DNA from: Eledone cirrhosa
Lineage: Eukaryota
Direction: 5' to 3'
Length of the DNA stretch: 64,000 bases
Assembly: GCA_964016885.1 (NCBI GenBank)
Contig: OZ024753.1
Span: forward strand, 26,784,001 to 26,848,000
Of the stretch, positions 3,001 through 29,226 are shown piece by piece; the first letter of the stretch is position 1; each line of letters begins with the position of its first letter. A model generated the notes under the pieces. It did no database searches. It was not told the origin of the DNA and worked only from the letters and a program-made list of their open reading frames with translations. The position numbers and the translations under genes were made by a program.

Positions 3001-3258
3001 AGGAAGATGAAAGACCAAGGGAGCACCCCTTCTCTGTGCTCCTGAGGAAAAGGGTTGCACACTTTTTTCTGAGTGGAGTGCGACCCCCAAGGCGCCTCCT
3101 CTCTATTGAGGATTTTGTTATATATTTTATTCTGTTATATTTTATTTTATTTTTATATTTTGTTATTGCCTCCTCCTTATTGAGGACGCCTTGTTTTGTA
3201 AACTCCCCCCTTTGTACTTGTCCCACTTTTGATACCCTGGTGGCAAATAAAAGAAACA
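1..3258 (+). mobile_element. Tx1/L1-clade non-LTR retrotransposon, copy A (5' part outside window): end of APE endonuclease, RT, C-terminal Cys finger, 3' UTR
   Basis: ORF 102-2753 has YLDRFLV/SDH (APE end), GPGYWKLN, KSPGLDGLP, FRPITLLN, LDQSKAFDRVDH, RQGCPLS, AYADDV and CPRC..EETVAHALVHC. It continues out of frame at a poly-C run into 2764-3045. The element ends ...GTGGCAAATAAAAGAAACA directly on the satellite. Confidence 0.93.
102..3045 (+). pseudogene. Tx1-like ORF2 (endonuclease/reverse transcriptase), frameshifted at poly-C 2721-2738
   Basis: ORF track 102..2753 plus 2764..3045, with RT motifs as above. Confidence 0.88.
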
Positions 3259-6200
3259 TATCTCTGTGTAAATATAGAAGTGTATATTACTATAGTACTC
3301 TAGCCATCTCTGTGTAAATATAGAAGTTTATATTACTATAGTTCTCTAGCCACATCTGTGTAAATATAGAAGTGTATATTACTACAGTTTTCTAGCCATC
3401 TCTGTGTAAATATAGAAGTGTATATTACTACAGTTTTCTAGCTATCTCTGTAAATATAGAAGTGTATATTACTATAGTTCTCTAGCTATCTCTGTAAATA
3501 TAGAAGTGTATATTACTACAGTTTTCTAGCAATCTCTGTGTAAATATAGAAGTGTATATTACCATAGTTCTCTAGCCATCTCTGTGTAAATATAGAAGTG
3601 TATATAACTATAGTTCTCTAGCTATCTCTATGTAAATATAGAAGTGTATATTACTATAGTTCTCTAGCTATCTCTGTGTAAATATAGAAGTGTATATTAC
3701 TATAGTTTTCTAGCTATCTCTGCGTAAATATAGAAGTGTATATTACTATAGTTCTATAGCTATCTCTGTGTATATTACTATAGTTCTCTAGCCAGCTCTG
3801 TGTAAATATAGAAGTGTATATTACTATAGTTCTCTACCTATCTCTCGGTAAATATAGAAGTGTATATTACTATAGTTCTTTAGCTATCTCTGTGTAAATA
3901 CAGAAGTGTATATTACTATAGTTCTCTAGCCACCTCTGTGTAAATATAGAAATGTATATTACTATAGTTCTATAACTATCTCTGTGTAAATATAGAAGTG
4001 TATATTACTATAGTTCTCTAGCCACCTCTGTGTAAATATAGAAGTGTATATTACTATAGTTCTCTACCTATCTCTCGGTAAATATAGAAGTGTATATTAC
4101 TATAGTTCTCTAACCATCTCTGTGTAAATATAGAAGTGTATATTACTATAGTTCTCTAACCATCTCTGTGTAAATATAGAAGTGTATATTACTATAGTTC
4201 TCTAGCTATCTCTGTGTAAATATAGAAGTGTATATTACTATAGTTCTCTAACCATCTCTGTGTAAATATAGAAGTGTATATTACTATAGTTCTCTAGGTA
4301 TCTCTGTGTAAATATTGAAGTGGATATTGCTATAGTTCTCTAGCCACCTCTGTGTAAATATTGAAGTGGATATTGCTATAGTTCTCTAGCCAGCTCTGTG
4401 TAAATATTGAAGTGTATATATATACACTTCTATATTTACATAGGGCTGGCTAGAGAACTATAGTAATATACACTTCTATATTTACACAGAGATAGCTAGA
4501 GAACTATAGTAATATACACTTCTATATTTACACAGAGCTGGACAGAGGGCCCGGTGAAGTTGCTCGGGGTCTGGTTCGGACCGGACCTCCAGGTGGAGAA
4601 AAACTGGGCGGAGGTTACGAACAGGGTGTTTGCACTGACCCAGAAGTGGGCCAGTTGCAAACTATCCCTGAAAGGTCGGGCGGAGGTGGCGAACACCTAC
4701 ATAGCGTCCGTCATCTACTACCGCCTGACCGTAGTGCCCTGCCCAAGGGAAACCCTCACCAAGATGGAGCGCGCACTCTTCCAATTCCTTTGGAAGAGGC
4801 GGGCTACTATGGTGAGGAGATCCAGCTATCTCTGTGTAAATAAAGAAGTGTATATAACTATAGTATTCTAGCAATCTCTGTGTAAATATAGAAGTGTATA
4901 TTACTATAGTTCTCTAGCGACCTCTATGTAAATATAGAAGTGTATATTACTATAGTTTTCTAGCAATCTCTGTGTAAATATAGAAGTGTATATTACTATA
5001 GTTCTCTAGCCAGTTCTGTGTAAATATAGAAGTGTATATTACTATAGTTCTTTAGCCATCTCTGTGTAAATATAGAAGTGTATATTACTATAGTTCTCTA
5101 GCCACCTCTGTGTAAATATAGAAGTGTATATTAATATAGTTCTCTACCCACCTCTGTGTAAATATAGAAGTGTATATTACTATAGTTTTCTAGCTATCTC
5201 TGTGTAAATATAGAAATGTATATAACTACAGTTTTCTAGCAATCTCTGTGTAAATATAGAAGTGTATATTACCATAGTTCTCTAGCTATCTCTGTGTAAA
5301 TATAGAAGTGTATATAACTATAGTTTTCTAGCCATCTCTGTGTAAATATAGAAGTGTATATAACTATAATTCTCTAGCCAGCTCTGTGTAAATATTGAAG
5401 TGTATATTGCTATAGTTCTCTAGCCAGTTCTGTGTAAATATAGAAGTGTATATTACTATAGTTCTTTAGCCATCTCTGTGTAAATATAGAAGTGTATATT
5501 ACTATAGTTCTCTAGCCACCTATGTGTTAATATAGAAGTGTATATAACTACAGTTTTCTAGCTATCTCTGTGTAAATATAGAAGTGTATATTGCTATAGT
5601 TCTCTAGCCAGTTCTGTGTAAATATAGAAGTGTATATTACTATAGTTCTCTAGCTATCTCTATGTAAATATAGAAGTGTATATTACTATAGTTCTATAGC
5701 TATCTCTGTGTATATTACTATAGTTCTCTAGCCAGCTCTGTGTAAATATAGAAGTGTATATTACTATAGTACTCTAGCCACCTCTGTGTAAATATAGAAG
5801 TGTATATTACTATAGTTCTCTAGCTATCTCTGTGTAAATATAGAAGTGTATATTACTATAGTTCTCTAGCCACCTCTGTGTAAATATAGAAGTGTATATT
5901 ACTATAGTTTTCTAGCCATCTCTGTGTAAATATAGAAGTGTATATTACTATAGTTTTCTAGCTATCTCTGTGTAAATAAAGAAGTGTATATAACTATAGT
6001 TTTCTAGCTATCTCTGTGTAAATATAGAAGTGTATATAACTATAGTTTTCTAGCCATCTCTGTAAATATAGAAGTGTATATAACTATAGTTTTCTAGCTA
6101 TCTCTGTGTAAATATAGAAGTGTATATAACTATAGTTTTCTAGCTATCTCTGTGTAAATAAAGAAGTGTATATAACTATAGTTTTCTAGCCATCTCTGTG

Positions 6201-8300
6201 TAAATATAGAAGTGTATATAACTATAGTTTTCTAGCCAGCTCTGTGTATATATTGAAGTGTATATTACTATAGTTCTCTAGCTATCTCTGTGTAAATATA
6301 GAAGTGTATATAACTATAGTTCTCTAGCCAGTTCTGTGTAAATATAGAAGTGTATATAACTATAGTTCTCTAGCCAGTTCTGTGTAAATATAGAAGTGTA
6401 TATTACTATAGTTCTCTAACCAGCTCTGTGCAAATATAGAAGTGTATATTACTATAGTTCTCTAGCCATCTCTGTGTAAATATAGAAGTGTATATTACTA
6501 TAGTTCTCTAGCCACCTATGTGTTAATATAGAAGTGTATATAACTACAGTTTTCTAGCTATCTCTGTGTAAATATAGAAGTGTATATTGCTATAGTTCTC
6601 TAGCCAGTTCTGTGTAAATATAGAAGTGTATATTACTATAGTTCTCTAGCTATCTCTATGTAAATATAGAAGTGTATATTACTATAGTTCTATAGCTATC
6701 TCTGTGTATATTACTATAGTTCTCTAGCCAGCTCTGTGTAAATATAGAAGTGTATATTACTATAGTACTCTAGCCACCTCTGTGTAAATATAGAAGTGTA
6801 TATTACTATAGTTCTCTAGCTATCTCTGTGTAAATATAGAAGTGTATATTACAATAGTTCTCTAGCCACCTCTGTGTAAATATAGAAGTGTATATTACTA
6901 TAGTTTTCTAGCCATCTCTGTGTAAATATAGAAGTGTATATTACTATAGTTTTCTAGCTATCTCTGTGTAAATAAAGAAGTGTATATAACTATAGTTTTC
7001 TAGCTATCTCTGTGTAAATATAGAAGTGTATATAACTATAGTTTTCTAGCCATCTCTGTAAATATAGAAGTGTATATAACTATAGTTTTCTAGCTATCTC
7101 TGTGTAAATATAGAAGTGTATATAACTATAGTTTTCTAGCTATCTCTGTGTAAATAAAGAAGTGTATATAACTATAGTTTTCTAGCCATCTCTGTGTAAA
7201 TATAGAAGTGTATATAACTATAGTTTTCTAGCCAGCTCTGTGTATATATTGAAGTGTATATTACTATAGTTCTCTAGCTATCTCTGTGTAAATATAGAAG
7301 TGTATATAACTATAGTTCTCTAGCCAGTTCTGTGTAAATATAGAAGTGTATATAACTATAGTTCTCTAGCCAGTTCTGTGTAAATATAGAAGTGTATATT
7401 ACTATAGTTCTCTAACCAGCTCTGTGCAAATATAGAAGTGTATATTACTATAGTTCTCTAGCCAGTTCTGTGTAAATATAGAAGTGTATATTACTATAGT
7501 TCTCTAACCAGCTCTGTGTAAATATAGAAGTGTATTTTACTATAGTTGTCGAGCTATCTCTGTGTAAATATAGAAGTGTATATTACTATAGTACTCTAGC
7601 CACATCTGTGTAAATATAGAAGTGTATATTACTATAGTTCTCTATTACTATAGTTGTCTAGCTATCTCTGTGTAAATATAGAAGTGTATATTACTATAGT
7701 ACTCTAGCCACATCTGTGTAAATATAGAAGTGTATATTACTATAGTTGTCTAGCTATCTCTGTGTAAATATAGAAGTGTATATTACTATAGTTCTCTAGC
7801 CATATTTGTGTAAATATAGAAGTGTATATTACTATAGTTCTCTAGCCAGCTCTCTGTAAATATAGAAGTGTATATTACTATAGTTCTCTACCTATCTATC
7901 GGTAAATATAGAAGTGTATATTACTATAGTTCTCTAACCATCTCTGTGTAAATATAGAAGTGTATATTACTATAGTTCTCTAACCATCTCTGTGTAAATA
8001 TAGATGTGTATATAACTATAGCTCTCTAGCCAGCTCTGTGTAAATATAGAAGTGTATATTACTATAGTTCTCTAGCTATCTCTGTGTAAATATAGAAGTG
8101 TATATTACTATAGTTCTCTAGCCATCTCTGTGTAAATATAGAAGTGTATATAACTATAGTTTTCTAGCTATCTCTGTGTAAATATAGAAATGTATATAAC
8201 TATAGTTTTCTAGCTATCTCTGTGTAAATATAGAAGTGTATATTACTATAGTTCTCTAGCCATCTCTGAGTAAATATAGAAGTGTATATAACTATAGTTT
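3259..8300 (+). repeat. 46-bp satellite array, block 1 (monomer ~ATCTCTGTGTAAATATAGAAGTGTATATTACTATAGTTCTCTAGCC/T)
   Basis: TAGCC recurs at 3301 and 3347 (period 46). About 100 degenerate monomers; ~996-bp higher-order duplication (5515 vs 6511, 5691 vs 6687). Confidence 0.98.
4537..4819 (+). mobile_element. Internal Tx1 RT-region fragment embedded in the satellite, next to a local satellite inversion (4420-4540)
   Basis: Nearly identical to 1780-2063 (VKLLGVWFGPDLQVEKNW...). Confidence 0.92.
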
Positions 8301-8592
8301 AAAATAATAATAATAATGAAATTATTGTGTACAGTGCTCAGGTGCACTACAACTCATCAAAGGTGCATGTATAGTACATAGAATAATGTACAAATGTCAG
8401 GAAAATAAACAGTGTATGAGTCATGATATAATAACAATAACAATAATGAAATATTGTGTACAGTGCCCAGGTGCACCACAACTCATCAAAAAAGTGCATG
8501 TACAGTACATAGGGCAATGCACAAACATCAGTAAAATGAACAGTGCATGAGTCATGATACACACATGTGTGCATGTGTATGGAAGGGGTACA

Positions 8593-10371
8593 TCAGGTGT
8601 AGTTTTGGCGTATTTCGGGAAGCATGAGTGTCTTAAAGGATGCAGTGTCTCGGCAGCTAACAATTGACGCAGGCAGTTTGTTCCATGCTTCAGCAACTCT
8701 GAGCGTGAAAAAATGTCTGCGAAAGTCATGGGAGCTGTGCTGTTTTCTTATCTTGTAGGCATGTCCACGTGTGTTAGACACATGGAGATCAAAGAGGCGC
8801 TCAGGGTTGCAGTTGGCGAGATGGTTAAAAACTTTGTGGGTATTCACCAAGTCCATTGCCAGACGTCGGAGCTTCAATGAATCCATGCCCAGGGAAGCAA
8901 GGCGTTCAGAGTATGGTAGGTGTCTGATGGAGGGTATGCGCTTGGTTGCACGTCTCTGAACAGTTTCCAGGAGGTCAATGTTCCGAGCAAGATAGGGGTT
9001 CCAGACTGATGATGCGAATTCCAAGAGTGGTCGCACCATAGCTGTATACAGTTTTAAATAGATGGCTGGAGAGCGGCTAACAAAGGTCTTGCTGAGTGAT
9101 GCCAAGACACCCTCGGCCTTCTTGACAATCTTAGAGACATGCTTTGTCCAACGCAAATCGTTGCTGACAGTAATGCCCAGGTCACGTTCACAAGAGGACT
9201 TTTTGATGTCAGTGTTGTGGAGGGAGTATGTGGACGCTGGATTTTTCCTTCCAAAATGCATGGTGGTACACTTGTCCACAGCCAGCTTCAGTTGCCAGTC
9301 TGTGATCCATTGCTGCATTGTGTCCATGTCTGATTGTAGGAAAGAGTTGTAAATTTCAGGATCAGTCCTTTTGATTTCAAGGTACAGCTTGATGTCATCT
9401 GCATATTTTAATACCGTGGCATTCTGTAAGTTGGCATCTATGTCATTAATATATGCCACAAACAAAAGAGGACCAAGAACAGATCCCTGTGGTACACCAG
9501 ATGACATCTCATATGGTGAAGAATGCTGTCCTAGAACCGTGACTACTTCCTTTCGGCTGAGAATGAAGGATTTCAGCCAGTCGAAAAGATCATTCCTCAC
9601 ACCCATTGCAGAGAGTTTTGCCATAAGTCTTTTGTGTGGCACAGAATTAAAAGCCTTAGCAAAGTCAAGGTAAACAACATCCACCCATGAGCCGCTGTCA
9701 GTGATCCGGGTGATGTCCTCAAGGAACTCGATAAGCTGATCACAGCAGCTGGAGTTAGGGATAAATCCAAACTGTGAGGGCCGGATGAGGCTGTGAGAGC
9801 TCCAGAAGTTCCAAAGTGTTTCTCTGACACAGGATTCCATCAGTTTGGCCATACAGCTAGTAAGACTGACTGAACGATAGTTGACAGGTGACATGCGGTT
9901 GCCCTTTTTGAACAGGGGAATGACACTGGCAGTTTTCCACTGCTCCGGAGTAGCACCATTGCTGAGACAGTATTGAAAGAAAAAAGAAAGCTGGCGCAAA
10001 AGGAAATCCCCGCCACGTTTGAGAAGCAGGTATGTCACACCATCAAGACCAGGGGAGGCATAGTTGCGCTTATTCTTAAGGTGACGTCGCAACATTGCAG
10101 GTGTAAATTCCATAGTTGTTATGGAATTTGATGTTAGAGATGGTGGAGATGGTACATTCTGGTTTTCAACAGTAAAAATACTTGCATAGCACTCAGCAAT
10201 GAGTTCTGCGCATTCCTTGGGATCGTCAGTGATCTGGCTTGTGTGGGGATTGCGAAGAGGACCAACTGGAGAGTGAGGTCTCTGCTTTGAATGAACATAT
10301 TTCCAGAACACCTTACTGTCAGGATTGGTTGCGATGCACTGTTCAAATTCAAGCACTGCCTTCTTTGTCAC
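8593..10371 (-). CDS. CR1-clade reverse transcriptase (ORF2 C-terminal part)
   Basis: Canonical non-LTR RT motifs. Separated from the endonuclease frame by a stop and a frameshift near 10500-10545. Confidence 0.9.
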   Translation of the reverse strand: MTKKAVLEFEQCIATNPDSKVFWKYVHSKQRPHSPVGPLRNPHTSQITDDPKECAELIAECYASIFTVENQNVPSPPSLTSNSITTMEFTPAMLRRHLKNKRNYASPGLDGVTYLLLKRGGDFLLRQLSFFFQYCLSNGATPEQWKTASVIPLFKKGNRMSPVNYRSVSLTSCMAKLMESCVRETLWNFWSSHSLIRPSQFGFIPNSSCCDQLIEFLEDITRITDSGSWVDVVYLDFAKAFNSVPHKRLMAKLSAMGVRNDLFDWLKSFILSRKEVVTVLGQHSSPYEMSSGVPQGSVLGPLLFVAYINDIDANLQNATVLKYADDIKLYLEIKRTDPEIYNSFLQSDMDTMQQWITDWQLKLAVDKCTTMHFGRKNPASTYSLHNTDIKKSSCERDLGITVSNDLRWTKHVSKIVKKAEGVLASLSKTFVSRSPAIYLKLYTAMVRPLLEFASSVWNPYLARNIDLLETVQRRATKRIPSIRHLPYSERLASLGMDSLKLRRLAMDLVNTHKVFNHLANCNPERLFDLHVSNTRGHAYKIRKQHSSHDFRRHFFTLRVAEAWNKLPASIVSCRDTASFKTLMLPEIRQNYT

Positions 10372-10541
10372 TTGCTTGAGATGGTTAAAAGATTTATTCC
10401 GCTTTTTTCTGTTGGCATCTGATCTATGCAGTTTATATTCCCGTTCAGCGTTCCGACGTTCTTTCCTGGCAAGTCGGACCGCTGAAGTTTCCCAGATTGC
10501 ACTTTTGGGTTATTTTTCCGCTTCCGTGGCACTGATGCTGC

Positions 10542-11354
10542 TCACGCTATCCATATTGAGTCCAGGATGCTCTGGAGTATAGAGTTCACATCTCCAGAGT
10601 TATAGATCTCATGCCAGTTTGGGCGCTGTAGCTCAGTGCAGTACAAGTTCCAATCCGCCCTCTTCCAATCAAAGCAAGCAGATTGGAGATGGCTCTGGTT
10701 TTTGTTGTTGCCCTCAAGTGCCAAATTGGCATTGATCATAGCATGATCAGAGTCGCCTAGAGGTTCCTCAGTAGTACAACTGATAACCACTTCAGGAGTA
10801 GTGGTGAAGATCAGGTCCAAAGTGTTGTCACCTCTTGTTGGAGAGGTGACTACTTGTGACCAGTTTGAGTCCAGCACTAGTTCAAGGAAATCATTTGCAC
10901 CCTGTGGCCAACGGAAGGTTTCCCAATCGATCTCAGGATGATTGAAGTCACCTGCAATAAACACATAAGTGGCTGTTTTCTTGGCAGCAACTCTGAGGAT
11001 ATCGCAAAGCTGTGTGTCCTGATGGTAGTTTGGGGGGCGATAAACAACACCAAGCAGAAGTGTTGACATGGTCATACGTATGTCACAGAAAAAAACTTCT
11101 TCCTGTGATTCGTTCAAATCAACGCAAGGAATTACCGAAATGTTTGAACAAACGTAGACCATCACACCACCACCACGGCGGTTATTGCGGTCCTTGCGGA
11201 AAAGGTTGTACCCAGTAATGATGAAAACCCCATCACAGAGTAAGGAATGTGCCCATGTTTCCGTGACTGTGATGAAGTCAGGGTCGATGCTTCTGACGTA
11301 GGATTCGAACAGATGTATCTTGTTGCATAAACTGCGAGCATTTAAGGACAACAA
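10542..11354 (-). CDS. CR1-clade APE endonuclease (ORF2 N-terminal part, prematurely stopped)
   Basis: LSLNARS, ETW, YRPP, GDFN, PTRGDNTLDL and SDH motifs. Confidence 0.88.
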   Translation of the reverse strand: MLSLNARSLCNKIHLFESYVRSIDPDFITVTETWAHSLLCDGVFIITGYNLFRKDRNNRRGGGVMVYVCSNISVIPCVDLNESQEEVFFCDIRMTMSTLLLGVVYRPPNYHQDTQLCDILRVAAKKTATYVFIAGDFNHPEIDWETFRWPQGANDFLELVLDSNWSQVVTSPTRGDNTLDLIFTTTPEVVISCTTEEPLGDSDHAMINANLALEGNNKNQSHLQSACFDWKRADWNLYCTELQRPNWHEIYNSGDVNSILQSILDSIWIA

Positions 11355-11410
11355 TTTGTACCCTGCTCGCAGTTTATGATGGTGTGTAGAGGGTGGCAGG
11401 TTGTTCTGGT

Positions 11411-12043
11411 TTAGTTTCCCAGAGTTGTAGCAGTTTTTACATTGCCAGTTATTGTGGGTAGATCACACTCAGACCAGCTGGTATCTCTCTTCCACGTTTC
11501 ACCAGCCTTGACAAACCTCCAGATCCGCCCATCATCACGTAGACTGAAACTTTCATCTTGTGCTGAGTTCCGATTCAAGGAAGCTGCAGCACGTAGTTTT
11601 GGACGTACATGGGGTGGTAGGCCTGGGCGTGTTCGGAAGGTAATCCGATTTTCACGCCCAGCTTTAGCAGAGGCCAGATGATATGAGGTTGCCTCTGCGG
11701 GGTCCGAGAAAGACAGCCTGATGAGTCTGGGTTTTGGACCAGGTCGACCAAGGTGGAGGGCACCCTTTGGGGGAACACAGCCTAGGTTTTTGGCTGAGCT
11801 GGCAGCAAATGCCTGAAGATCAGCCTTGTCCTCTGGTGCCCCAATGGCAATCACTTCATGGGTAGCAGATTCCGCAGTCTTTTCCGTCTTTCCAGCAAGA
11901 GGTACAGGGAGATTCTTTAGCAAGGCATTCCGATAAGACCCCTCATTGTGGAGTCCTACCCGAATGCTTGCCTCTATTCCTGCAACTTCCCTTCTCAGAG
12001 CAGAAATCATTAGCTGCAGTTCCGCAAAATCTGTACTGGTCAG

Positions 12044-12140
<97 letters not shown>

Positions 12141-12765
12141 TGCTGCTGTCGTTGTTGGTGATGATGATGTTCCTCCACGGGAATGGCAGGGGAGGACACA
12201 GTCGCAGGTTGTTGCTGTTGTTGGTGATGATGATGTTCCTCCACGGGAATGGTAGGGGAAGACACAGTCACCAGTTGTTGGTGTCGAGATGTACTGGGAG
12301 TGGAAGACATGGGTTGTTGTTGTTTCTGATGTTCTCCCACAGGAATAACAGTAGAAGCCAGTGTCATAGGTTTTTGCCGTTGTTCAGTAACAATGGTAGA
12401 GGAAGACACAGTCATTGGTTTTTCAATAACATTAATAACATTCGTGGAGGCAGGCACACAGGCCAGACACTGAAAGGACCAGGATTTTAGCTGGACCATC
12501 TCCCATATTCCATCCATCATAGCATTATGATGTCTCTTTTTTTGGCCTGGGATCCTCCGGAAGCCTTTGGCGCATTGAAGGCAGACAGAGATGCGACAGG
12601 TTCCACATTCGACCCAGCGATTACGGAACGAGTTTTCGGGTTCCGCACAGATATGGCAGATGTGATTTTCTGGGCAATGTTCTATCTGGGGACATCAGCC
12701 GGTTTTGTCGCATATTTCATCGATGGATATCACCATGGCAATTTTGTTATTTCTACCCATCCGTA
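11411..12765 (-). CDS. CR1 ORF1 with a PHD-like Cys finger (frameshifted near 12525) and a 35-Gln tract
   Basis: Manual minus-strand translation upstream of 12520 gives CHIC...WVECGTC...VCLQC, completed by WSFQCLAC in ORF 11411..12520. (CAA/CAG)35 at 12044-12148. Confidence 0.75.
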
Positions 12766-13680
12766 GAAAAACACAGAATGTAAACAATATAGGTTTAGCG
12801 CACTTGATTACGATAGAAATAAAATGTCTGTTTGTTTGTGTATTTTGTTTCCGTTTTCCTAAATGTTGTGTGTGTACAGAAGAGTCTGAATTACATTACA
12901 TGTAAACAAATAAATATGCTGCGTAAGTTAAATGAAACGTACTGTAGAAGGCAGTTGTTTATTAACAGCGAAATAAGGTTTTTTTTTTTTTTTAGCCATC
13001 TCTGTGTAAATATAGAAGTGTATATTGCTATAGTTCTCTAGCCAGCTCTGTGTAAATATTGAAGTGTATATTGCTATAGTACTCTAGCCACCTCTGTGTA
13101 AATATAGAAGTGTATATAACTATAGTTCTCTAGCTATCTCTATGTAAATATAGAAGTGTATATTACTATAGTTCTATCTAAGTGTATATTACTATAACTA
13201 TCTCTGTGTAAATATAGAAGTGTATATTACTATAGTTCTCTAGCCACCTCTGTGTAAATATAGAAGTGTATATTACTATAGTTCTCTAGCCACCTCTGTA
13301 GATATAGAAGTGTATATTACTATAGTTCTCTAGCCATCTCTGTGTAAATATAGAAGTGTATATAACTATAGTTCTCTAGCTATCTCTATGTAAATATAGA
13401 AGTGTATATTACTATAGTTCTATCTAAGTGTATATTACTATAACTATCTCTGTGTAAATATAGAAGTGTATATTACTATAGTTCTCTAGCCACCTCTGTG
13501 TAAATATAGAAGTGTATATTACTATAGTTCTCTAGCCACCTCTGTAGATATAGAAGTGTATATTACTATAGTTCTCTAGCCATCTCTGTGTAAATATAGA
13601 AGTGTATATAACTATAGTTCTCTAGCCACCTCTGTAGATATAGAAGTGTATATTACTATAGTTCTCTAGCTATCTCTGTG

Positions 13681-15686
13681 TGTAGCGGTTGTCTCCCTTG
13701 TTTTGATTAGGATCTAGACGGGAAGTGGAACCCTTTCTGCAACTTCCGGTCAGAGCCCTATAAAACTAACAACTTTGGGCTTCCTCTCTCTCTTTGCCTT
13801 TTCGGCACCAGGTCAAGAGTCTTCTCATTTGGCTCTGCCATTAATTTGGCCAACAGGCGCCTGGCTAAGGCCAGGCGCCCTCTGCCAGTCGCATTTGCCT
13901 GGCAATCAAAACGGTAACTACTAACTTTGTTTCATTCTAACATCTATCTTTGACATGTCAAGTATTCTATCTACCGTTAATTAAATATTATATACACAAA
14001 CACCACTCGTTTTGTTACATTCATTCAACCAGTAATCACGCTATATTGGTAACCCTGACGTGATACGAACACGCAGCCGTTCATCGCTATAAGTGGTCAC
14101 CCCCAAAAAAAGAAAAAAATAGCACATCTGGTTTTGTGAGTAACATTACGAATACACAGCAAATTTAGCGACAAACTATGAAAATACTCAAGGACACGCA
14201 CACACGCACATGTGGAATTCGCACAGACATACTTTTTCTCTCACGCATCAATTAACTGTCGCATTTCACCAATATATATATATATGTTTCTCGTTTCTTA
14301 CAACGAACACTTTCAAAACAAAAAAAAAACATTTCACGATATATATATATATATGTTTCTCGTTTCTTACAACGAACTCTTTCAAAACACAAAAAAAAAA
14401 AAAAAAAGTTCTAGTTTTTTGTTTTTTTCCAAAGTTCACACCTATAATTATGCTGATTGAAGCCTTTCTTTTTCATCATGGTCACTTTCAAAATTGCACT
14501 ATCATTTTCTCGCGCGTTAGAAATATTTTTTTTCAACCTTGTATTGGCACGTGTAGGCAGCATAAATTCTCGATTCACTGAGATGTCTCTTACTCACAGA
14601 CAGCCGCACGCCAGAGATAGCATTTCTCCCCCAAGGATTCTTCAGCCTTAAGCTATATTCTTCTATTTGCCGGTTTATAAGTTTACAATGTAAATTTACC
14701 GTTGATAACCGCGCATTTATTAAGAATGCTTATTTCTCTGGTCGCTGGCCTCTTGACCCTTCCAGGTCAACGCATTCTCAACATCGACCATCAACTTCGG
14801 CTGCTATTTCTAGCACTTTGCGCAACTCATTTTTTTTCTAAAAAAAAAATTTTTTACTGTGAATTTAAACACCGAATACGCTCACTCAGCGAGACAACAG
14901 CAGCAGCAACAGCAATACAGCTTCACCAAAGCCAGAGAATTCATTTTTGCAGCACTCTTCCTGTGAGAAAATCCATTCGGAGGTTGGAAATTTCACGATG
15001 TACCACAGAACAGAAACCACCTGCATTCATTCTCTGGAGCACACTTTCTTTCCAGCTGTCATGTGATTGCACACCTGTGAACTATATTTTGAACTTTGAG
15101 CTCTTCTATTACTTTTACTTTATTACATTGTATCTTTGGGTGATGGATAGATGGATGTCCAGTCGTTCTCTGGCCAAGAGCGGTTGGCTACCTTGATATC
15201 TATCATTGATTTTTCCAAACATTCTTTTGTCGTAATTTTCATGCCTGTTACAACATTCTCGCCAACTTGCTACATATTTTCATTTCGATTTTTATACACT
15301 AAAATTCTGGCGGGAGGTTATGTAGCGGTTGTCTCCCTTGTTTTGATTAGGATCTAGACGGGAAGTGGAACCCTTTCTGCAACTTCCGGTCAGAGCCCTA
15401 TAAAACTAACAACTTTGGGCTTCCTCTCTCTCTTTGCCTTTTCGGCACCAGGTCAAGAGTCTTCTCATTTGGCTCTGCCATTAATTTGGCCAACAGGCGC
15501 CTGGCTAAGGCCAGGCGCCCTCTGCCAGTCGCATTTGCCTGGCAATCAAAACGGTAACTACTAACTTTGTTTCATTCTAACATCTATCTTTGACATGTCA
15601 AGTATTCTATCTACCGTTAATTAAATATTATATACACAAACATTGTCTCGTTTTGTTACATTCAAACAACCAGTAATCCCGCTATA
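13681..15686 (+). mobile_element. Non-autonomous LTR retrotransposon (TRIM/LARD-like); LTRs 13681-14045 and 15321-15686
   Basis: ~365-bp direct repeats TGTAGCG...CGCTATA; PBS at 14047; purine tract GGCGGGAGG just before 15321; no gag/pol motifs in the interior. Confidence 0.92.
14047..14078 (+). promoter_or_regulatory. Primer-binding site complementary to the 3' end of tRNA-Trp
   Basis: TGGTAACCCTGACGTGATACGAACACGCAGCC versus the reverse complement of the metazoan tRNA-Trp 3' end as I recall it (TGGTGACCCCGACGTGATTCGAACACGCAGCC). Confidence 0.85.
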
Positions 15687-15750
15687 GTTCTCTAGCTATC
15701 TCTGTGTAAATATAGAAGTGTATATTACTATAGTTCTATCTAAGTGTATA

Positions 15751-15875
15751 TTACGCAGCATATTTATTTGTTTACATTACATGTAAACAAATAAATATGC
15801 TGCGTAAGTTAAATGAAACGTACTGTAGAAGGCAGTTGTTTATTAACAGCGAAATAAGGTTTTTTTTTTTTTTTT
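15751..15875. repeat. Foldback insert: 27-bp perfect hairpin plus a copy of the CR1 5' terminus; repeated at 17201-17324 and 17792-17916
   Basis: TTACGCAGCATATTTATTTGTTTACAT-tac-ATGTAAACAAATAAATATGCTGCGTAA followed by the sequence of 12927-12993. Confidence 0.93.
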
Positions 15876-18800
15876 AGCCATCTCTGTGTAAATATAGAAG
15901 TGTATATTGCTATAGTTCTCTAGCCAGCTCTGTGTAAATATTGAAGTGTATATTGCTATAGTACTCTAGCCACCTCTGTGTAAATATAGAAGTGTATATA
16001 ACTATAGTTCTCTAGCTATCTCTATGTAAATATAGAAGTGTATATAACTATAGTTCTCTAGCCACCTCTGTGTAGATATAGAAGTGTATATTACTATAGT
16101 TCTCTAGCCAGCTCTGTGTAAATATAGAAGTGTATATTACTATAGTTCTCTAGCGACCTCTGTGTAAATATAGAAGTGTATATTACTATAGTTTTCTAGC
16201 AATCTCTGTGTAAATATAGAAGTGTATATTACTATAGTTCTCTAGCTATCTCTGTGTAAATATAGAAGTGTATATTACTATAGTTCTCTAGCTATCTCTG
16301 TGTAAATATAGAAGTTTATATTACTATAATTCTCTAGCTATCTGTGTAAATATAGAAGTGTATATTACTATAGTTCTCTAACCAGCTCTGTGTAAATATA
16401 GAAGTGTATATAACTATAGTTCTCTAGCCATCTCTATATAAATATAGAAGTGTATATTACTATAGTTCTCTAGCTATCTCTGTGTAAATATAGAAGTGTA
16501 TATTACTATAGTTCTCTAGCCATCTCTGTGTAGATATAGAAGTGTATATAACTATAGTTCTCTAGCTATCTCTATGTAAATATAGAAGTGTATATTACTA
16601 TAGTTCTCTAGCTATCTCTGTGTAAATTACTATAGTTCTCTAGCCATCTCTGTGTAAATATAGAAGTGTATATTACTATAGTTCTCTAGCTATCTCTATG
16701 TAAATATAGAAGTGTATATGACTATAGTTCTCTAGCTATGTCTGTGTAAATATAGAAGTGTATATTACTATAGTTCTATAACTATCTCTGTGTAAATATA
16801 GAAGTTTATATTACTATAGTTCTCTAGCTATCTCTGTGTAAATATAGAAGTGTATATTACCATAGTTCTCTAGCTATCTCTATGTAAATATAGAAATGTA
16901 TATTACTATAGTTCTATAACCATCTCTGTGTAAATATAGAAGTGTATATTACTATAGTTCTCTAGCCACCTCTGTGTAAATATAGAAGTGTATATTACTA
17001 TAGTTCTCTAGCCACCTCTGTAGATATAGAAGTGTATATTACTATAGTTCTCTAGCCATCTCTGTGTAAAGATAGAAGTGTATATAACTATAGTTCTCTA
17101 GCCACCTCTGTAGATATAGAAGTGTATATTACTATAGTTCTCTAGCTATCTCTGTGTAAATATAGAAGTGTATATTACTATAGTTCTATCTAAGTGTATA
17201 TTACGCAGCATATTTATTTGTTTACATTACATGTAAACAAATAAATATGCTGCGTAAGTTAAATGAAACGTACTGTAGAAGGCAGTTGTTTATTAACAGC
17301 GAAATAAGGTTTTTTTTTTTTTTTAGCCATCTCTGTGTAAATATAGAAGTGTATATTGCTATAGTTCTCTAGCCAGCTCTGTGTAAATATTGAAGTGTAT
17401 ATTGCTATAGTTCTCTAGCTATCTCTGTGTAAATATAGAAGTGTATATTACCATAGTTCTCTAGCTATCTCTATGTAAATATAGAAATGTATATTACTAT
17501 AGTTCTATAACTATCTCTGTGTAAATATAGAAGTGTATATTACTATAGTTCTCTAGCCACCTCTGTGTAAATATAGAAGTGTATATTACTATAGTTCTCT
17601 AGCCACCTCTGTAGATATAGAAGTGTATATTACTATAGTTCTCTAGCCATCTCTGTGTAAATATAGAAGTGTATATAACTATAGTTCTCTAGCCACCTCT
17701 GTAGATATAGAAGTGTATATTACTATAGTTCTCTAGCTATCTCTGTGTAAATATAGAAGTGTATATTACTATAGTTCTATCTAAGTGTATATTACGCAGC
17801 ATATTTATTTGTTTACATTACATGTAAACAAATAAATATGCTGCGTAAGTTAAATGAAACGTACTGTAGAAGGCAGTTGTTTATTAACAGCGAAATAAGG
17901 TTTTTTTTTTTTTTTTAGCCATCTCTGTGTAAATATAGAAGTGTATATTGCTATAGTTCTCTAGCCAGCTCTGTGTAAATATTGAAGTGTATATTGCTAT
18001 AGTTTTCTAGCTATCTCTGTGTAAATATAGAAGTGTATATTACTATAGTTCTCTAGCCACCTCTGTGTAAATATAGAAGTGTATATTACTATAGTTCTCT
18101 ACCTATCTCTCGGTAAATATAGAAGTGTATATTACTATAGTTCTCTAGCCACCTCTGTGTAGATATAGAAGTGTATATTAATATAGTTCTCTAGCCACCT
18201 CTGTGTAAATATAGAAGTGTATATAACTATAGTTCTCTAGCTATCTCTATGTAAATATAGAAGTGTATATAACTATAGTTCTCTAGCCACCTCTGTGTAG
18301 ATATAGAAGTGTATATTACTATAGTTCTCTAACCACCTCTGTAAATATAGAAGTGTATATTACTATAGTTCTCTAACCAGCTCTGTGTAAATATAGAAGT
18401 GTATATTACTATAGTTCTTTAGCTATCTGTGTGTAAATATAGAAGTGTATATTACTATAGTTCTGTGTAAATATAGAAGTGTATATTACTATAGTTCTCT
18501 AACCAGCTCTGTGTAAATATAGAAGTCTATATTACTATAGTACTCTAGCCACCTCTGTAAATATAGAAGTGTATATTACTATAGTTCTCTAGCCATCTCT
18601 ATATAAATATAGAAGTGTATATAACTATAGTTCTTTAGCCAGCTCTGTGTAAATATAGAAGTGTATATTACTATAGTTCTCTAGCCATCTCTGTGTAAAT
18701 ATAGAAGTGTATATTACTATAGTTCTCTAGCTATCTCTGTGTAAATATAGAAGTGTATATAACTATAGTTCTCTAGCCATCTCTATATAAATATAGAAGT

Positions 18801-20726: not shown

Positions 20727-21450
20727 CACACTTGGAATTCACATCATCAGTCTGGAACCCCTATCTTGCTCAGAACATTGACCTCCTGGAAACTGTTCAG
20801 AGACGTGCAACCAAGCGCATACCCTCCATCAGACACCTACCATACTCTGAACGCCTTGCTTCCCTGGGCATGGATTCATTGAAGCTCCGACGTCTGGCAA
20901 TGGACTTGGTGAATACCCACAAAGTTTTTAACCATCTCGCCAATTGCAACCCTGAGCGCCTCTTTGATCTCCATGTGTCTAACACACGTGGACATGCCTA
21001 CAAGATCAGAAAACAGCACAGCTCCCATGACTTTCGTAGGCATTTTTTCACGCTCAGAGTTGCTGAAGCATGGAACAAACTGCCTGCGTCAGTTGTTAGC
21101 TGCCGAGACACTGCATCCTTTAAGACACTCATGCTTCCCGAAATACGCCAAAACTACACCTGATGTACCCCTTCCATACACATGCACACGTGTGTATCAT
21201 GACTCGTGCACTGTTCATTTTACTGATGTTTGTGCATTGCCCTATGTACTGTACATGCACTTTTTTGATGAGTTGTGGTGCACCTGGGCACTGTACACAA
21301 TATTTCATTATTGTTATTATTATTATATCATGACTCATACACTGTTCATTTTCCTGACATTTGTACATTATTCTATGTACTATACATGCACCTTTGATGA
21401 GTTGTAGTGCACCTGAGCACTGTACACAATAATTTCATTATTATTATTAT
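20727..21450 (+). mobile_element. 5'-truncated CR1 copy (RT C-terminus + 3' UTR) in the satellite
   Basis: Near-identical reverse complement of ~8304-9025; ORF 20732..21163; (ATT)n tail. Confidence 0.93.
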
Positions 21451-21606
21451 AGTTCTCTAGCTATCGCTGTGTAAATATAGAAGTGTATATTACTATAGTT
21501 CTCTAGCTATCTCTGTGTAAATATAGAAGTGTATATTACTATAGTTCTCTCGCTATCTCTGTGTAAATATAGAAGTGGATATTACTATAGTTCTCTAGCT
21601 ATCTCT

Positions 21607-21671
21607 CGGAAAGCGGTGTCGGCCTACGCCGATGACGTGACAGTAATGGTGTTGACGGCCTCCGAAATCGG
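21607..21671 (+). mobile_element. 65-bp Tx1 RT fragment (encodes RKAVSAYADDVTVMV) inside the satellite
   Basis: Matches 1587-1651. Confidence 0.9.
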
Positions 21672-21926
21672 CCTCTGTGTAAATATAGAAGTGTATATAA
21701 CTATAGTTCTCTTGCTGGGGATGGACACACGCGTATAACTTGCTGAGTAAGTTCTGTTTAAATTTCTATAGAAATTCTTGTCTGTAAACTTTAATTTTTG
21801 TACCATTTTGTAGAGGGACTGCCAGGTCAAACTTTGATCTGGTCAATCTCTCAAAATATTCTACGCCTTTAGGCGAAATAGTTAAACAAAAAGGGTTTTT
21901 TTGTTGAAAAGTTAACATTTTTTTAA

Positions 21927-23619
21927 ATGGCTGAAACTTCTTCACCAAAATTCGAAGGAGGAAAGGGGAAGATAAGCTTACAGCTTCCCCCTGCCACTGT
22001 CACAGTAGCAGAGGTCAAAAACAAAGGTCAGCCAGAGGAAGGATTTTCTCCACTTGCTGACCGACAACTTGACGTTGCCATGGCAACAAACCAAAGAACC
22101 AGTGGCACCAGCAATAACAACAACAACAACAATGCTATGGACGAAAACAACACCAATAACAATACCAACAACAACAAGACCAATAACTGTGATAACAACA
22201 ACAGCAACACAAACAAGGAAAAAGTCTCCTTCGCCCAGACGGCAAGGAAAACCCTAGACTATCTGCCAGTAGATATAACCAAAGCGAAGGAGCTACTAGC
22301 AGAGGCAAAAAAATACATAATGTATGGGGAGAATGGTGCGTTTTCGACCCCCCCCCCCCCCCGGAGCTAAAAAGCAAGAGACTCCTAAACACTGTCATGT
22401 TTAGGACAATCTCAAATAAAAGCAAAAAACCAGCTCAACCATCACAGAGTGAGATAGAGCTGGTTTTAAAGGACGTCATGAGCGACGTCACATTCATCCA
22501 GAAGGATAGACTCTACGGGAGTCTATCCATTCTCATGAAGGACAGGGACACAGCAGTGAAACTGTCCATCAAACCAATCACATCCACCGCATACACCTTC
22601 TACCCTACCTACATGGGTAGAAGGACACAAAAAATAAAAATCCACACCATCCTGCCGATTATGGACATATGGTGGGTTTTGACAGGTTTCCTGAACCTGG
22701 ATGATGACATGCTGGTGTCCATGGGAAAGGCATCGGGTGACGCGTTCAGTGGAACGAGCCTCGAACTTGTAGTTCAAATGAGGCCCGAAAGGATCGCCCA
22801 GATCCCTGAACGCGTCATACTGGATGATCGAACTTTCATCAACATTACTGTTGAGGGTAGGCGGCCCTCATGTTACCTCTGTGGAACCAGAGGTCACCTG
22901 AGGGCTGTCTGTCCCCAACTTGATAAGAAAACCCCAATCCTGCCTACACCACCAACAACTGCACAACCAACACAATCACCACAACTACCACTACAAAAAC
23001 AACAACCACAGCTCAAACCAAAACAAAACAATGTCCAACACATCCCCCCCACTAAAAAAAAAACAATTTGAAAAACACCCGCACTGCAAACACAACCCGA
23101 AAATATACCCCTCCCCTCCAACGCGGAAGATGACCCTAGTTTGTCGTCAGACGAGGAGGAGCACTTCCACACAATCAAAAGAAAAAAAAGAGCTCACAAC
23201 AACAGCAAACAAAAAACACCACACAAAAACAAAAACATGCATACACATACATAAACACAAGAAACAAAAAACTGTTAAACATTGTGTACAACAACAATTT
23301 AATAAAAACCCAAGGGCCTAACTTCACCCAGGCAGGGGATTTCCTCCACCTCAAAATGATTAAGGCCCCACAGGACACTTATAAAACTTGAAAAAACAAC
23401 TTTAAAGAGGACGTGGGTCCCTCCTGCGTCAGGCACATTAACCGCGTCCTCCTTAAAAACTACCTCACACCCTCCCCAAACACCCACACAACTCCAAACA
23501 CCCCAACCACACAACACACTGGTGCCCCTACACTTCCACAAACCACCACCCCACCCAACAACCCATCCCCCACCCTCATGGAAATTGAGCAGCCCGATAC
23601 CCGGGATGCAGAGAGGTAA
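21927..23619 (+). pseudogene. Tx1 ORF1 (gag-like, CCHC zinc knuckle), frameshifted
   Basis: ORFs 21927..22370, 22397..23071 and 23413..23619; CX2CX4HX4C at ~22871-22912. Confidence 0.8.
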
Positions 23620-23644
23620 GTGCCTTTTCTCTTCACCACCAACA

Positions 23645-26600
23645 TGGCTATGCTAAGAGTAGGCTGTTTAAATGCGCATGGCCTGGGCTCAACTTGGAAG
23701 CAAGCAATGCTTCTAAATGACCTCAGGTCACAACGTATAGATGTGATGGTTATTTGCGAGGCCCGGATCAGCAACGTGCGACTTTAAGATGCACGCATCT
23801 CTCTGTCAGCCCGGAGGTGGGGATGGGGTTGTCGTTCCGCTGCAAAAACATCTGGGTCTCGCAACACCGTCGGTACATTTGGACCCGGAGGGTTGACTAG
23901 TGGTTTTGGACCTTGGCAGTGGTGAAGGCGGAGCGTTTAGGTTGGTAGCCGCCTACGGCCCTTTCGGGTCAATGCGGCCGGACTTCTTCCATCGTCTGGA
24001 GACTTTTCTAGGGACGTCCCGCTCCTTGCTATTAGTGGGGGACTGGAATGGTATCCTAGATGCACGCTGGGACTACGTAGGGGCCTGTCCCGATAGAGAG
24101 GGGTGTAATAGCCTCAAAGGGTTAATCTGTCGATTTGACCTGGCCGATAGATATCGACTAGATTTTCCGACTGCGCCAACCTGGACTTGGGCAAATCGCA
24201 GCGGATCATCTAGGTCGTACCTAGATAGGTTCTTAGTTAGAAATAAGGATAAGGACTTTTTAAGTTATCCAAAAATGAGCATGGTTGGCTATTCAGACCA
24301 CAAGTTAGTGAGCTGCATGGTCAACCTTGACAGAACGCATAGACAGGGACCCGGTTACTGGAAGCTCAACTTGTCCTTACCGGCAAGTAAGGCTTACAGG
24401 GACCGGATTAGCACTTTAGTTAAGGAGCGGTTGACGGGCGTCATCGTCAACAGCATGTGGTGGGGATCTCTCAAAAGAGAGATTAGAGTAGTCTCTATAG
24501 AATTTAGTAAGGAGTTAGCCTCAAATAGAAATAGGAATGAAAGGGAGCTGGTAGATAGTGTAGAAGAGGCAATTAGAAGCGGCGACGTGTCCAGAGTGCT
24601 AGCGTCGAGAACGGCCCTGAGCCAGTTCTTCGACGCGAAACACGAAGGCTGCATCGTCCGAAGCAAAATACGTGCTCTGGGAAACGAGGGGACCAAAGCT
24701 GTTAGCTGGGCCCGCGTGACAGAAGCCAAAAGAGGGAGCAGATCCACTATCCGGTCTTTGCGAGACCAGGATGGACGGGTGATCCTTGAACCTAAGCAGA
24801 TGTGCGAGGCTTTTCAAAAGCACTTTGCCGGATTGTTCGGAAGGGGCGGGGAGCCGGTTGGGGATGTGGACTTCGGTCCATACCTCGACGGCCTGCCGCG
24901 TCTCTCGGAGAGGGAGGCGAAGTCCTGCGAGGAGCCGATTTCAGCCGCTGAGATAGAGGACATGCTGAGCCCATGCGGCAAACGCAAATCCCCGGGTCTC
25001 GATGGTCTTCCATACGAACTGTATCTAGCTATGCCGGACTTGTTCCCCGATCTCCTCGAGGCGGTCTACTGCAACTGGCAACAGAACGCGAGAATTCCCT
25101 GTGCTGTGACCAAGGGCGTAGTCATACTAGTGAGGAAGGACGAGAACAAGGGGGACGATATAAATAATTTCAGGCCCATTACAGATTTTGGCCAAGGTGC
25201 TAGCAAAGAGGTTGGCGCTTGTTGTGGGCAACCTGGTGGGAGATGCGCAGACATGTGCTATCCCGGCCAGGTCCATCCACGACAACCTCCACCTCATGCG
25301 ATACATCATAGAGAGGGTTAGGAACGAACCCGGCTTTGGTGGGGCCCTGATCAACTTGGATCAATCTAAGGCGTTCGATAGGGTCGACCATGGTTACCTG
25401 GATGCGGTGCTAGCGGCGGCAGGCTTCGGACCCGTTTTCAGGGGCTGGATCAATGCCATGCACAGCAGCCGCATCTGCTCTAGGGTCAAGGTGAACGGCT
25501 ACCTCTCGGAGCTGTTCGAAATCGCGCGGTCCATCCGACAAGGGTGCCCTCTCTCCTCCCTTCTGTATGTGATGACTCTAGAGCCACTGCTGCGGAAGTT
25601 GGAGTTGTTGCAGGGCATCCCATTGGAACCGGGATTGCGGAAAGCGGTTTCGGCCTACGCCGACGATGTAACAGTAATGGTGTCGACGGCCTCGGAAATC
25701 GGGGCGGTCGGCACCTTACTGGAGGAGTACGAAAGGTTTACAGGGGCTAAGCTAAACCGGGACAAGTCGATCGGTCTGCAACTCGGCACGTGGAGGGGCA
25801 GATCAATGCCCTCCAAAGGTGTCGTCGGGCGCTGGACGGAGGGCCCGGTGAAGTTGCTCGGGGTCTGGTTTGGACCAGACCTCCAGGTGGAGAAGAACTG
25901 GGCGGAGGTTACGAACAGGGTGTTTGCACTGACCCAGAAGTGGGCCAGTTGCAAACTATCCCTGAAAGATCGGGCGGAGGTGGCGAACACCTATATAGCG
26001 TCCGTTATCTACTACCACGTGACAGTCGTGCCTTGCCCATGGGAAACCCTCGCCAAGATGGAGCGCACGCTCTTCCAATTCCTTTGGAAGAGGCGGGCTC
26101 CTTTGGTGAGGAGTTCCATCTGCTGTCAACACCCTTCAAAAGGAGGGCTGGGGATGCCGTGGCTAATGATGCATAAACACGCATTAAGGCTACGGCACCT
26201 CCACGTATTCCTCACCGGTCAACCGGTGTGGGCCTCGTTTGTGAGACGAACCTTTCCCAGACTCGTCTCACTCACCGAGCTGCAATCCTGGGTCAAGCAA
26301 AGACTGAGAAAACTGGGCGCCTGCCACACTGAGTGTGCCCAGGCGCTCACCGACCTCTGGCAGGCGGATCCGGTTATCAGTGGAGACTCCACTGCAACAT
26401 TCTATAGAGGGCTGGTATGCAGCAGGTGCAACAACGCCCTCGGAGAAGCCCTAGACATGGATGAAGACGAACTGGCCAGCCTGTTCGGTAGGACATTCAG
26501 CCCGGGACCTATGGACAACTTCCAGAAGTCCCTGGCCTGGCAGTGCTACCGAGGGGCTCTACCCGTTCGAGAAAAGCTCTACAGACACGGGCGCCCGGGT

Positions 26601-27094
26601 AGGGACCCCGCCAAAAAGATCTGTCCCAGATGCGTGTGCGACAAGGAAACCGTTGCACACGCATTGGTACACTGCTCGGGCGTAGCCGATCTGTGGGGCT
26701 ATGTCGAACAACTGCTGTCAAGAGTGGGACCGATCCGGTTGACCACCGAGTCTATTGTAACGATCAACCCGCCCCCCCCCCCCCTTCCTTCAAAAATGAA
26801 GTAGAGGCGGTGTTTCTGTGCGTAATAGCCATTGGGAAAGAGGTTGTATGGTGGACGCGTCTGAAAGGACTGAGGTCAGGCACCTTTCTCTCTGGCCAAC
26901 AACTGGTCCGTTTCTTCCGATATCATTTCGGAAGAAGGATCAGGATGGAGAGAGAGGTGCTGCACCCCAGTCATTTTTATGAAAGGTGGGTGAAAGTGGC
27001 GAGAATGGCCCGTGTGAATGGGCCTTCTCTTTACATAAGCCTGTCGGTGGAAAAGAGGAAGGAACGAGGGAGCACCCTCTCTCTGTGCTCCTGA
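23645..27094 (+). pseudogene. Tx1 ORF2 (APE-RT-Cys finger), frameshifted near 23800, 25180 (deletion relative to copy A) and 26772-26784
   Basis: ORFs 23900..25321, 25188..26804 and 26630..27094; GDWN, YLDRF, SDH and YADD motifs. Confidence 0.88.
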
Positions 27095-27252
27095 GGAGAA
27101 GGGGTTGCACACTTTTTTATTGAGGACTTATTATTAAGTTTATTGTTAATTTTATATTTGTTATATATTTTCTTTACTCGCCTTTTCATGTAAACTCCCC
27201 CCATTGTACTTGTCCCACTTTTTGATGCCCTGGTGGCAAATAAAAAGAAACA

Positions 27253-27412
27253 TATCTCTGTGTAAATATAGAAGTGTATATAACTATAGTTCTCTAGCTA
27301 TCTCTCTGTAAATATAGAAGTGTATATCACTCTAGTTTTCTAGCTATCTCTGTGTAAGTATTACTATATTTCATATTACTATAGTTTTCTAGCCAACTCA
27401 GTGTAAATATTT
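27253..27412 (+). repeat. Terminal decaying monomers of the 46-bp satellite
   Basis: About 3-4 monomers fading into intronic sequence ~50 bp before the 3' splice site. Confidence 0.85.
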
Positions 27413-27463
27413 CATAATTATTCCATAATTCAACATGTAATCTACTATTTTGTTTTTTTGCAG

Positions 27464-27551
27464 GTCTGGTGGTGTGGAGGTATTTGCTCAACAAGGAAAA
27501 ATCAAAGTAGTCAATACTTTGGACAAAAGGCTAGACCTCATTAGCCAACAG
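27464..27551 (+). CDS. ATP6V1E: V-type proton ATPase subunit E, penultimate coding exon (SGGVEVFAQQGKIKVVNTLDKRLDLISQQ)
   Basis: TTTTTTTGCAG acceptor and GTAAG donor; 88-nt exon. The peptide resembles V-ATPase E (human [29 protein letters not shown], recalled). Confidence 0.92.
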
Positions 27552-28279: not shown

Positions 28280-28422
28280 GATAAACGGCAATTTTCAAAA
28301 CTTGTACTAAGAAAGAGGACAAGATGTATTTAATACCTGCTTTTATAGCAAGTTTATACAGATGTTTATCCCCTACCCACTTCAACTGTTATTACATGCA
28401 ATTGAAAAAGAAACCCACATTA

Positions 28423-29163: not shown

Positions 29164-29226
29164 ATGTTGCCTCAGCTGAGAGAAATACTTTTTGCGAAGA
29201 ATGTTAATCGCAGATTCTTGAATTAA
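29164..29226 (+). CDS. ATP6V1E: V-type proton ATPase subunit E, last coding exon (MLPQLREILFAKNVNRRFLN*)
   Basis: Pyrimidine tract + CAG acceptor, in frame with the previous exon. Resembles the V-ATPase E C-terminus (human [20 protein letters not shown], recalled). Confidence 0.92.
   Translation: MLPQLREILFAKNVNRRFLN

Follow-up and report, generated by a model that had tools for sequence, protein, structure and literature searches.

A 46-bp minisatellite, probably young and probably within a V-ATPase subunit E intron of an octopod, that has gathered nested retrotransposons

We analyzed a 64-kb stretch of the Eledone cirrhosa genome (contig OZ024753.1, positions 26,784,001 to 26,848,000; hereafter the window), in which an array of a 46-bp repeat, interrupted by retrotransposons, lies just before the last exons of the gene for V-ATPase subunit E. 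We consider it likely that this is a young, single-locus minisatellite, intronic in the V-ATPase E gene, that has been gathering nested retrotransposons through a repeated cut site and its own instability; nothing seen in it points to a role in defence. An earlier sequence-only reading of the same DNA had described the array as a trap for transposable elements (TEs) and as a repeat-spacer "memory" resembling a source of PIWI-interacting RNA (piRNA) or endogenous small interfering RNA (endo-siRNA). Its inventory of the pieces between the monomers was accurate, each being present where it had been placed, but the interpretation is supported only in part.

Satellite bases make up 10,415 of the 24,154 bases of the array span, and its 196 full-length monomers (mean, 2.5 mismatches) fall into 101 kinds. 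By read depth, the repeat is unamplified in two other organisms (B and C), and there is no second array of it within the window. The repeat mass in sequencing run X1 corresponds to approximately 300 monomers (a rough figure, taking single-copy depth as 9) versus the ca. 226 expected from 10.4 kb. The repeat is thus not a high-copy satellite, and minisatellite is the better name; it looks low-copy and is likely to be young and confined to a single locus. Folding of the monomer is no better than that of shuffles (z, −0.3), and neither Rfam at the gathering threshold nor ARAGORN gave any match in the 64 kb. The motif TATCT occurs 115 times on the plus strand of the array span, versus once per 671 bases in the rest of the window. 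A 996-bp tandem duplication within the array is either a recent expansion or an assembly overlap.

The two exons downstream of the array encode residues that match Octopus vulgaris P0121, placing the window in an octopod: outside the junction overlap, 49 of 50 aligned residues are identical, the sole change being Gly to Ala. They score 30 bits against PF01991 (cut-off, 24.2), and the encoded protein, the canonical splice sites and the open frames of both exons are those of an orthologue. The acceptor is at position 27463, approximately 50 bp after the array ends at 27410, as the sequence-only reading had it. That reading saw no upstream exon in 27 kb, and a tblastn search with four cephalopod orthologues agrees, finding no earlier V-ATPase E exon within the window. 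Since only the last two exons are present, the intron would exceed 27 kb if the gene is intact. The array is therefore probably intronic, as had been claimed, although this is deduced from the window, with the upstream exon lying outside it, rather than seen directly.

The decay of CpG sites fits this position. Four young TE pairs from within the array showed transitions at 10 of 101 CpG sites versus 8 of 571 other C/G sites (p, 6e-5), whereas pairs downstream of the gene had no excess (33/309 versus 225/2036 sites). The CpG-transition ratio is 2.0 for all TE pairs before position 29300 and 0.97 for those after 30200. In Octopus bimaculoides, methylation is concentrated on highly expressed gene bodies, with satellites relatively methylated too (PMC9476566), and the decay in the array is as expected for a methylated octopus gene body.

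Part of the array could instead be an assembly artefact, or the exons could belong to a silent partial gene duplicate, and features such as the near-perfect 996-bp duplication, frame breaks in homopolymer runs and bins near the last exon at 2 to 4 times single-contig depth would suit either. So would the Gly-to-Ala change: Gly is found in 8 of 8 homologues covering the site, and the base in the window is confirmed by the X1 contig with no differences. However, we regard this explanation as very improbable. The 196 monomers are of 101 distinct kinds and the repeat mass roughly fits the assembled length; a 404-bp contig from X1 (possibly the source sample) links the last monomers to the exon with 0 differences; and the exons keep open frames and canonical splice sites. 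In organism B, a contig over 27381-27636 with 21 differences represents the orthologous acceptor region, with the repeat at single-copy-level depth only.

Within and beside the array, four sequences derive from a Tx1-like long interspersed nuclear element (LINE) family: copies A and B, and two internal pieces. The earlier reading had missed copy A, together with a 121-bp inverted satellite and the 996-bp duplication, and had called copy B full; it is near full-length, but its second open reading frame (ORF2) is broken. The internal reverse transcriptase (RT) pieces, given there as 283 and 65 bp, were found at 282 and 65 bp. The architecture is of the Tx1 type, with a CCHC knuckle in ORF1 and, in ORF2, an APE endonuclease, an RT and a C-terminal zinc motif of the L1 type. 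Pfam recognized RVT_1 and zf-RVT and, below the cut-off, zf-CCHC (E, 0.023) and Exo_endo_phos (E, 1e-4). The best solved match of ORF2 is human L1 ORF2p (E, 1e-43), and its closest named relative among the matches listed, from Argonauta hians (62%), likewise points to an octopod; no named Tx1 reference appeared among the 120 matches listed. The labels Tx1, CR1, RTE and Penelope are assignments that we presume from domain architecture rather than from trees. Relatives of the Tx1 C-terminal region were found in neither of 2 candidates in viral contigs and in none of 36 in prokaryote genomes. An 18-base motif of the Tx1 3′ end hit 29 metagenome loci, none aligning to the window past 32 bases, and we took these hits as chance.

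Between copies A and B, identity is 90.7% and the ratio of nonsynonymous to synonymous substitution (dN/dS) is 0.30 (88 synonymous and 89 nonsynonymous changes in 898 codons; p, 3.6e-14). This indicates different active sources and independent insertions, and it rules out that copy B arose by duplication of copy A. The 3′-end length variants of the two copies are common alleles of the family. Their 3′ ends meet the monomer at the same place, position 1, and on one strand, a coincidence of 1 in 92 by chance; to the left of copy B, the satellite stops at position 43. The two pieces rejoin the satellite at positions 44 (282 bp) and 3 (65 bp), within 3 nt of the shared end, an observation made post hoc. 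On its left side, the 282-bp piece has a 5-nt microhomology at the junction, and the satellite stops at position 7 before the 65-bp piece. Both pieces are of the copy A type, although the 65-bp piece lies only 41 bp from copy B. CpG transitions account for 7 of the 12 differences between the two pieces and copy A, and the 282-bp piece has private synonymous changes, so its donor may be a third copy.

These junctions raise the question of whether the family targets the satellite as such. Target preference is already known in the Tx1 group, including for microsatellites, transposons and satellites (PMC4494074). A satellite-specific Tx1 family using the 46-bp repeat as a safe harbour would explain two independent copies at one base, and such families appear in the Fig. 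3 legend of that paper. Read depth speaks strongly to the contrary. Of 15 runs listed, 4 were aligned to 21560-30100 at 85% likeness, and depth in the Tx1 3′ bin versus the bin that follows, which spans repeat plus exon, was 256,868 versus 439 in X1, 1,024 versus 0.15 in X13, 516,415 versus 13 in X5, and 2,483 versus 0 in X6. In X13, 1,782 reads at position 27242 compare with approximately 43 read-bases in the following bin. The ratio of repeat to Tx1 3′ ends is 0.17% in X1, 0.015% in X13 and 0.003% in X5, hence at most 0.2% in these three runs, well short of the more than 20% of flanks that serves as the target criterion in PMC4494074. The Tx1-like family is abundant yet almost never enters the 46-bp repeat; moreover, the copy number of the repeat is low, and organism B combines an abundant family with an unamplified repeat. 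Strict satellite targeting is thus rejected by the read depth, being largely refuted for the family as a whole. Only a small subfamily hidden among the 85%-alike reads could still behave in that way, and we give this almost no weight.

Considering that so few family 3′ ends enter the repeat, any preference must be for a short motif. TATCT, frequent in the array, would reconcile the shared Tx1 site with the rarity of entry into the repeat: full Tx1 3′ ends lie at ^TATCTC in 2 of 2 cases in the window. In the 10.4 kb of satellite we see 2 Tx1 copies versus 0.002 to 0.1 expected, a rough estimate for a family size of 434 to 28,541 and an assumed 2.8-Gb genome (P of 0.005 or less on that expectation). 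We tentatively suggest, with slightly less than even confidence, that the family prefers a short motif, which would be a first description for octopus as far as the literature searched extends. The literature searched, which did not extend to most subscription papers or to Repbase, yielded nothing on Tx1 target preference in octopus or on the V-ATPase E intron.

A cassette at 59890-62216 consists of a 5′-truncated, diverged Tx1 (72% to copy B) fused directly to a 5′-truncated RTE, with a single 12-bp target duplication around both; it is a candidate chimeric retrotranscript or nested insertion. Its duplication and right flank begin with TATCT, a site that the RTE may have picked.

The insertions could also have had no sequence preference at all, arising by chance, or because an AT-rich array that bears palindromes is generally fragile and under weak selection, with the shared Tx1 site coincidental. 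Every junction falls within monomer positions 32 to 10, including that of a CR1 at 43-44, and since two same-family pairs were compared, the 1 in 92 becomes approximately 1 in 46. The 36.6 kb outside the array also hold several such elements (at least three RTE, one Penelope-like, one Tx1 and two CR1 pieces). Nevertheless, all four Tx1-derived inserts are on one strand and rejoin within positions 44 to 3, and the 10.4 kb hold more Tx1 copies than the rough estimate predicts, so we regard the absence of any preference as unlikely.

Several points weigh against our account as a whole. The motif preference is drawn from the two full Tx1 insertions and the two internal pieces, with the cassette at 59890-62216 as an ambiguous third case, and the window was chosen for its unusual look, which inflates the enrichment. 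With the CR1 5′ junction also at 43-44, the junctions may simply cluster where the monomer is fragile in general. In the read data, depth summed over contigs does not give copy number, the X13 run is a restriction-site-associated DNA (RAD) library, X1 may itself be the source sample, and most of the loose ends at the 3′ end of Tx1 fell outside what the depth listing displayed. The TE pairs used for the CpG counts are partly nonindependent, and the CpG signal is no proof of an intron, because octopus satellites are also relatively methylated (PMC9476566).

The other inserts are a long CR1-type LINE, a truncated CR1, a noncoding long terminal repeat (LTR) element and three short hairpins. The earlier reading had called the long CR1 full; it is present and near full-length, but its ORF2 frame is broken. 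Pfam recognizes its endonuclease and RT domains and no PHD, and its 3′ untranslated region (UTR) has a 131-bp duplication and an (ATT)n tail. We presume, by eye, a PHD-like cysteine pattern and a CR1 C-terminal motif. Read in its own orientation, the element starts (12979-12992) with a run of approximately 14 A; at this insertion 2 bases of the target are missing and none are duplicated. The truncated CR1 and the LTR element were both located as the earlier reading had described them. The target duplication of the LTR element is 20 bp, versus 4 bp for a related solo LTR at approximately 37422-37603, which suggests repair or a later rearrangement. LTR-based dating was dropped because all 7 differing columns fall within the last 44 of 366. 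Positions 14047-14064, immediately 3′ of the first LTR, hold a candidate primer-binding sequence that may resemble a tRNA-Trp site.

The hairpin inserts had been read as three captures. They are identical and share both flanks, a rare left-hand monomer and variant right-hand monomers, in blocks matching exactly over 193 to 281 bp, so they represent one local foldback event copied three times by block duplication. Each has a perfect 27-bp stem (z, −13) and few-base microhomologies at both switches. A foldback with a templated insert is a known outcome at DNA breaks in yeast (PMC11724301).

As to the trap, the TE share of the array span (56.6%) is that of the genome mean, given as 53.8 kb per 100 kb in the annotation of another species, O. 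vulgaris (PMC13282606). LINEs take up 48% of the span versus 12.9% in O. vulgaris (same source), so long retroelements are overrepresented. The claim of a trap keeps modest support from the LINE share and the two Tx1 copies. The "memory" is not supported. Inserts range from 65 to 5,540 bp, with junctions at monomer positions 1, 3, 7, 10, 32, 36, 37, 40, 43 and 44; this irregular size and register, with three inserts being copies of one, is no CRISPR-like repeat-spacer architecture. In addition, TE bases sense to the V-ATPase strand amount to 8,614 bp versus 5,051 bp antisense (63% sense), which is not the mostly antisense content of a uni-strand piRNA cluster, the TE share is average, and the next V-ATPase E intron likewise holds high-copy repeats and a CR1 foldback.

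Could the array nonetheless be a source of piRNAs or endo-siRNAs, the host precursor messenger RNA with its TE RNA being processed against the resident CR1 and Tx1 families? The LINE share, the perfect hairpins and the presence of young TEs on either strand would fit. Molluscs make piRNAs widely, in soma and germline, from clusters enriched for young TEs (PMC6128900), and in Drosophila virilis TEs within the introns of transcribed genes may yield piRNAs (PMC7911463). We nevertheless judge this improbable: besides the average TE share, the sense bias, the single origin of the hairpins and the lack of a regular register, the repeat is unamplified in organisms B and C, similar foldbacks occur beyond the array, and hundreds to thousands of other family copies could serve. 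The anatomy of the array calls for no small-RNA output, although some output is possible. We would likewise give little credence to the bolder idea of a minisatellite acting as a self-built TE trap that feeds sense, antisense and hairpin RNA to the piRNA pathway, i.e., a new cluster born from a tandem repeat. In that case the repeat, having multiplied a Tx1 endonuclease site more than 100 times within the intron of a highly expressed housekeeping gene, would capture entire elements as well as RT fragments from internal priming and copy them through turnover of the array.

Returning to the minisatellite as a repeated cut site, its history may have been as follows. The unit would have been amplified in this lineage from intron sequence near the acceptor. 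The Tx1 endonuclease would favour a short motif near AGC^TATCT, present more than 100 times in the array, and the two internal pieces could be by-products of aberrant insertion or of microhomology-templated repair near the shared site. Both CR1s and the LTR element would be ordinary insertions into AT-rich DNA. A jump back to the CR1 end on few-base microhomologies would have produced the foldback; block duplications then tripled it, presumably via template switching and unequal exchange. The whole array would be transcribed as an intron and then spliced out.

Read in this way, the array is an example of how a tandem repeat ages within a gene, with insertions, foldbacks and block duplications that come to mimic a repeat-spacer array. 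It may also serve as a natural target assay, pointing to a short insertion motif for a Tx1-like family that is abundant in an octopod. Were small RNAs found to map there, they would show a piRNA source arising from a minisatellite.

Features of the array and its surroundings (positions in the window)
Feature	Coordinates	Strand	Remarks
46-bp minisatellite array	3259..27410	+	Interrupted by inserts
Tx1-like LINE copy A	1..3258	+	5′ part beyond window; ORF2 open over 3-2753; 3′ end directly at monomer position 1
Inverted satellite (foldback), 121 bp	4421..4541	-	Directly 5′ of 282-bp Tx1 piece
Internal Tx1 ORF2 piece, 282 bp	4542..4823	+	96.5% to copy A, 93.3% to copy B
Higher-order tandem duplication, 996 bp	5467..7464	+	1 mismatch in 1002 bases
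CR1-type LINE, near full-length	8301..12992	-	ORF1 11411-12694; endonuclease frame 10542-11462; RT frame 8593-10509
LTR element, noncoding	13681..15686	+	LTRs 13681-14045 and 15321-15686; first 322 bp identical
Hairpin insert 1	15755..15874	+	5′-most 100 bp of local CR1, 100% identical, plus short foldback
Hairpin insert 2	17205..17323	+	Same event as insert 1, same flanks
Hairpin insert 3	17796..17915	+	Same event as insert 1, same flanks
5′-truncated CR1	20727..21447	+	98.2% to 3′ 723 bp of long CR1; opposite orientation
Internal Tx1 RT piece, 65 bp	21607..21671	+	A type: 2 differences to copy A, 6 to copy B
Tx1-like LINE copy B, near full-length	21713..27252	+	CCHC knuckle in ORF1; ORF2 broken, with a 20-bp deletion near 25179; satellite restarts at monomer position 1
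V-ATPase subunit E penultimate coding exon	27464..27551	+	Residues 178-206 of 226-amino-acid subunit; AG/GT sites; 29/29 residues as in O. vulgaris P0121
V-ATPase subunit E terminal coding exon	29164..29226	+	Residues 207-226 and stop; one Gly-to-Ala

Elsewhere in the window, CR1 3′ pieces lie at 28419-28733, including the foldback of the next intron (28563-28733, 172 bp), and at 52194-52480, where a 61-bp tandem repeat derives from a CR1 segment. A second tandem-repeat family, with units of 31 to 191 bp, forms two related blocks (33846-35590 and 44364-45322), the first of them broken at approximately 34910-35375 by an inverted-end element with a 50-bp piece of Tx1 3′ UTR. An exon-like piece after a good acceptor (53810-53908) has an in-frame stop, and a 24-amino-acid part of it has no Pfam match; its translation presumably resembles a catalytic segment of a guanylate/adenylate cyclase. 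At 55066-57315, a 328-amino-acid frame without a Pfam match has, by eye, a Penelope GIY-YIG-like end and is flanked by 560-bp inverted arms that are 97.7% alike.

The Tx1-like family resembles Tx1L, Keno, Kibi, Koshi and the crocodilian Tx1-Mar (PMC4494074) in its L1-like ORF2 with a zinc motif and its CCHC ORF1. Like the target-preferring LINEs of the Tx1 clade in that paper, it has no long poly(A) tail and reuses one base in a repeat. It differs from them in its octopod host and in its putative target, a short motif: at most 0.2% of the family's insertions fall in the 46-bp repeat, against a criterion of 20%. The foldbacks and pieces are similar to microhomology-mediated foldback and templated insertion (PMC11724301), with a short inverted duplication at a junction and inserts with few-base microhomologies. 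Unlike the yeast foldbacks, they are found in an animal germline array and are deduced from its sequence, and the Tx1 pieces could equally have arisen by aberrant LINE priming.

At the level of the locus, the young TEs gathered in one transcribed region recall the piRNA clusters of Lymnaea and Crassostrea (PMC6128900) and the trap model (PMC9254008). However, mollusc piRNA clusters are defined by their small-RNA output, whereas the array is known by its sequence and overall holds no larger a share of TEs than the genome of a related octopus does on average. A further likeness is with Ranbp16 and CG8578 of D. virilis (PMC7911463), conserved genes in which a species-variable intron has grown to tens of kilobases with young TEs. 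What sets the octopod array apart from those TE-expanded introns is its matrix, a 46-bp minisatellite.

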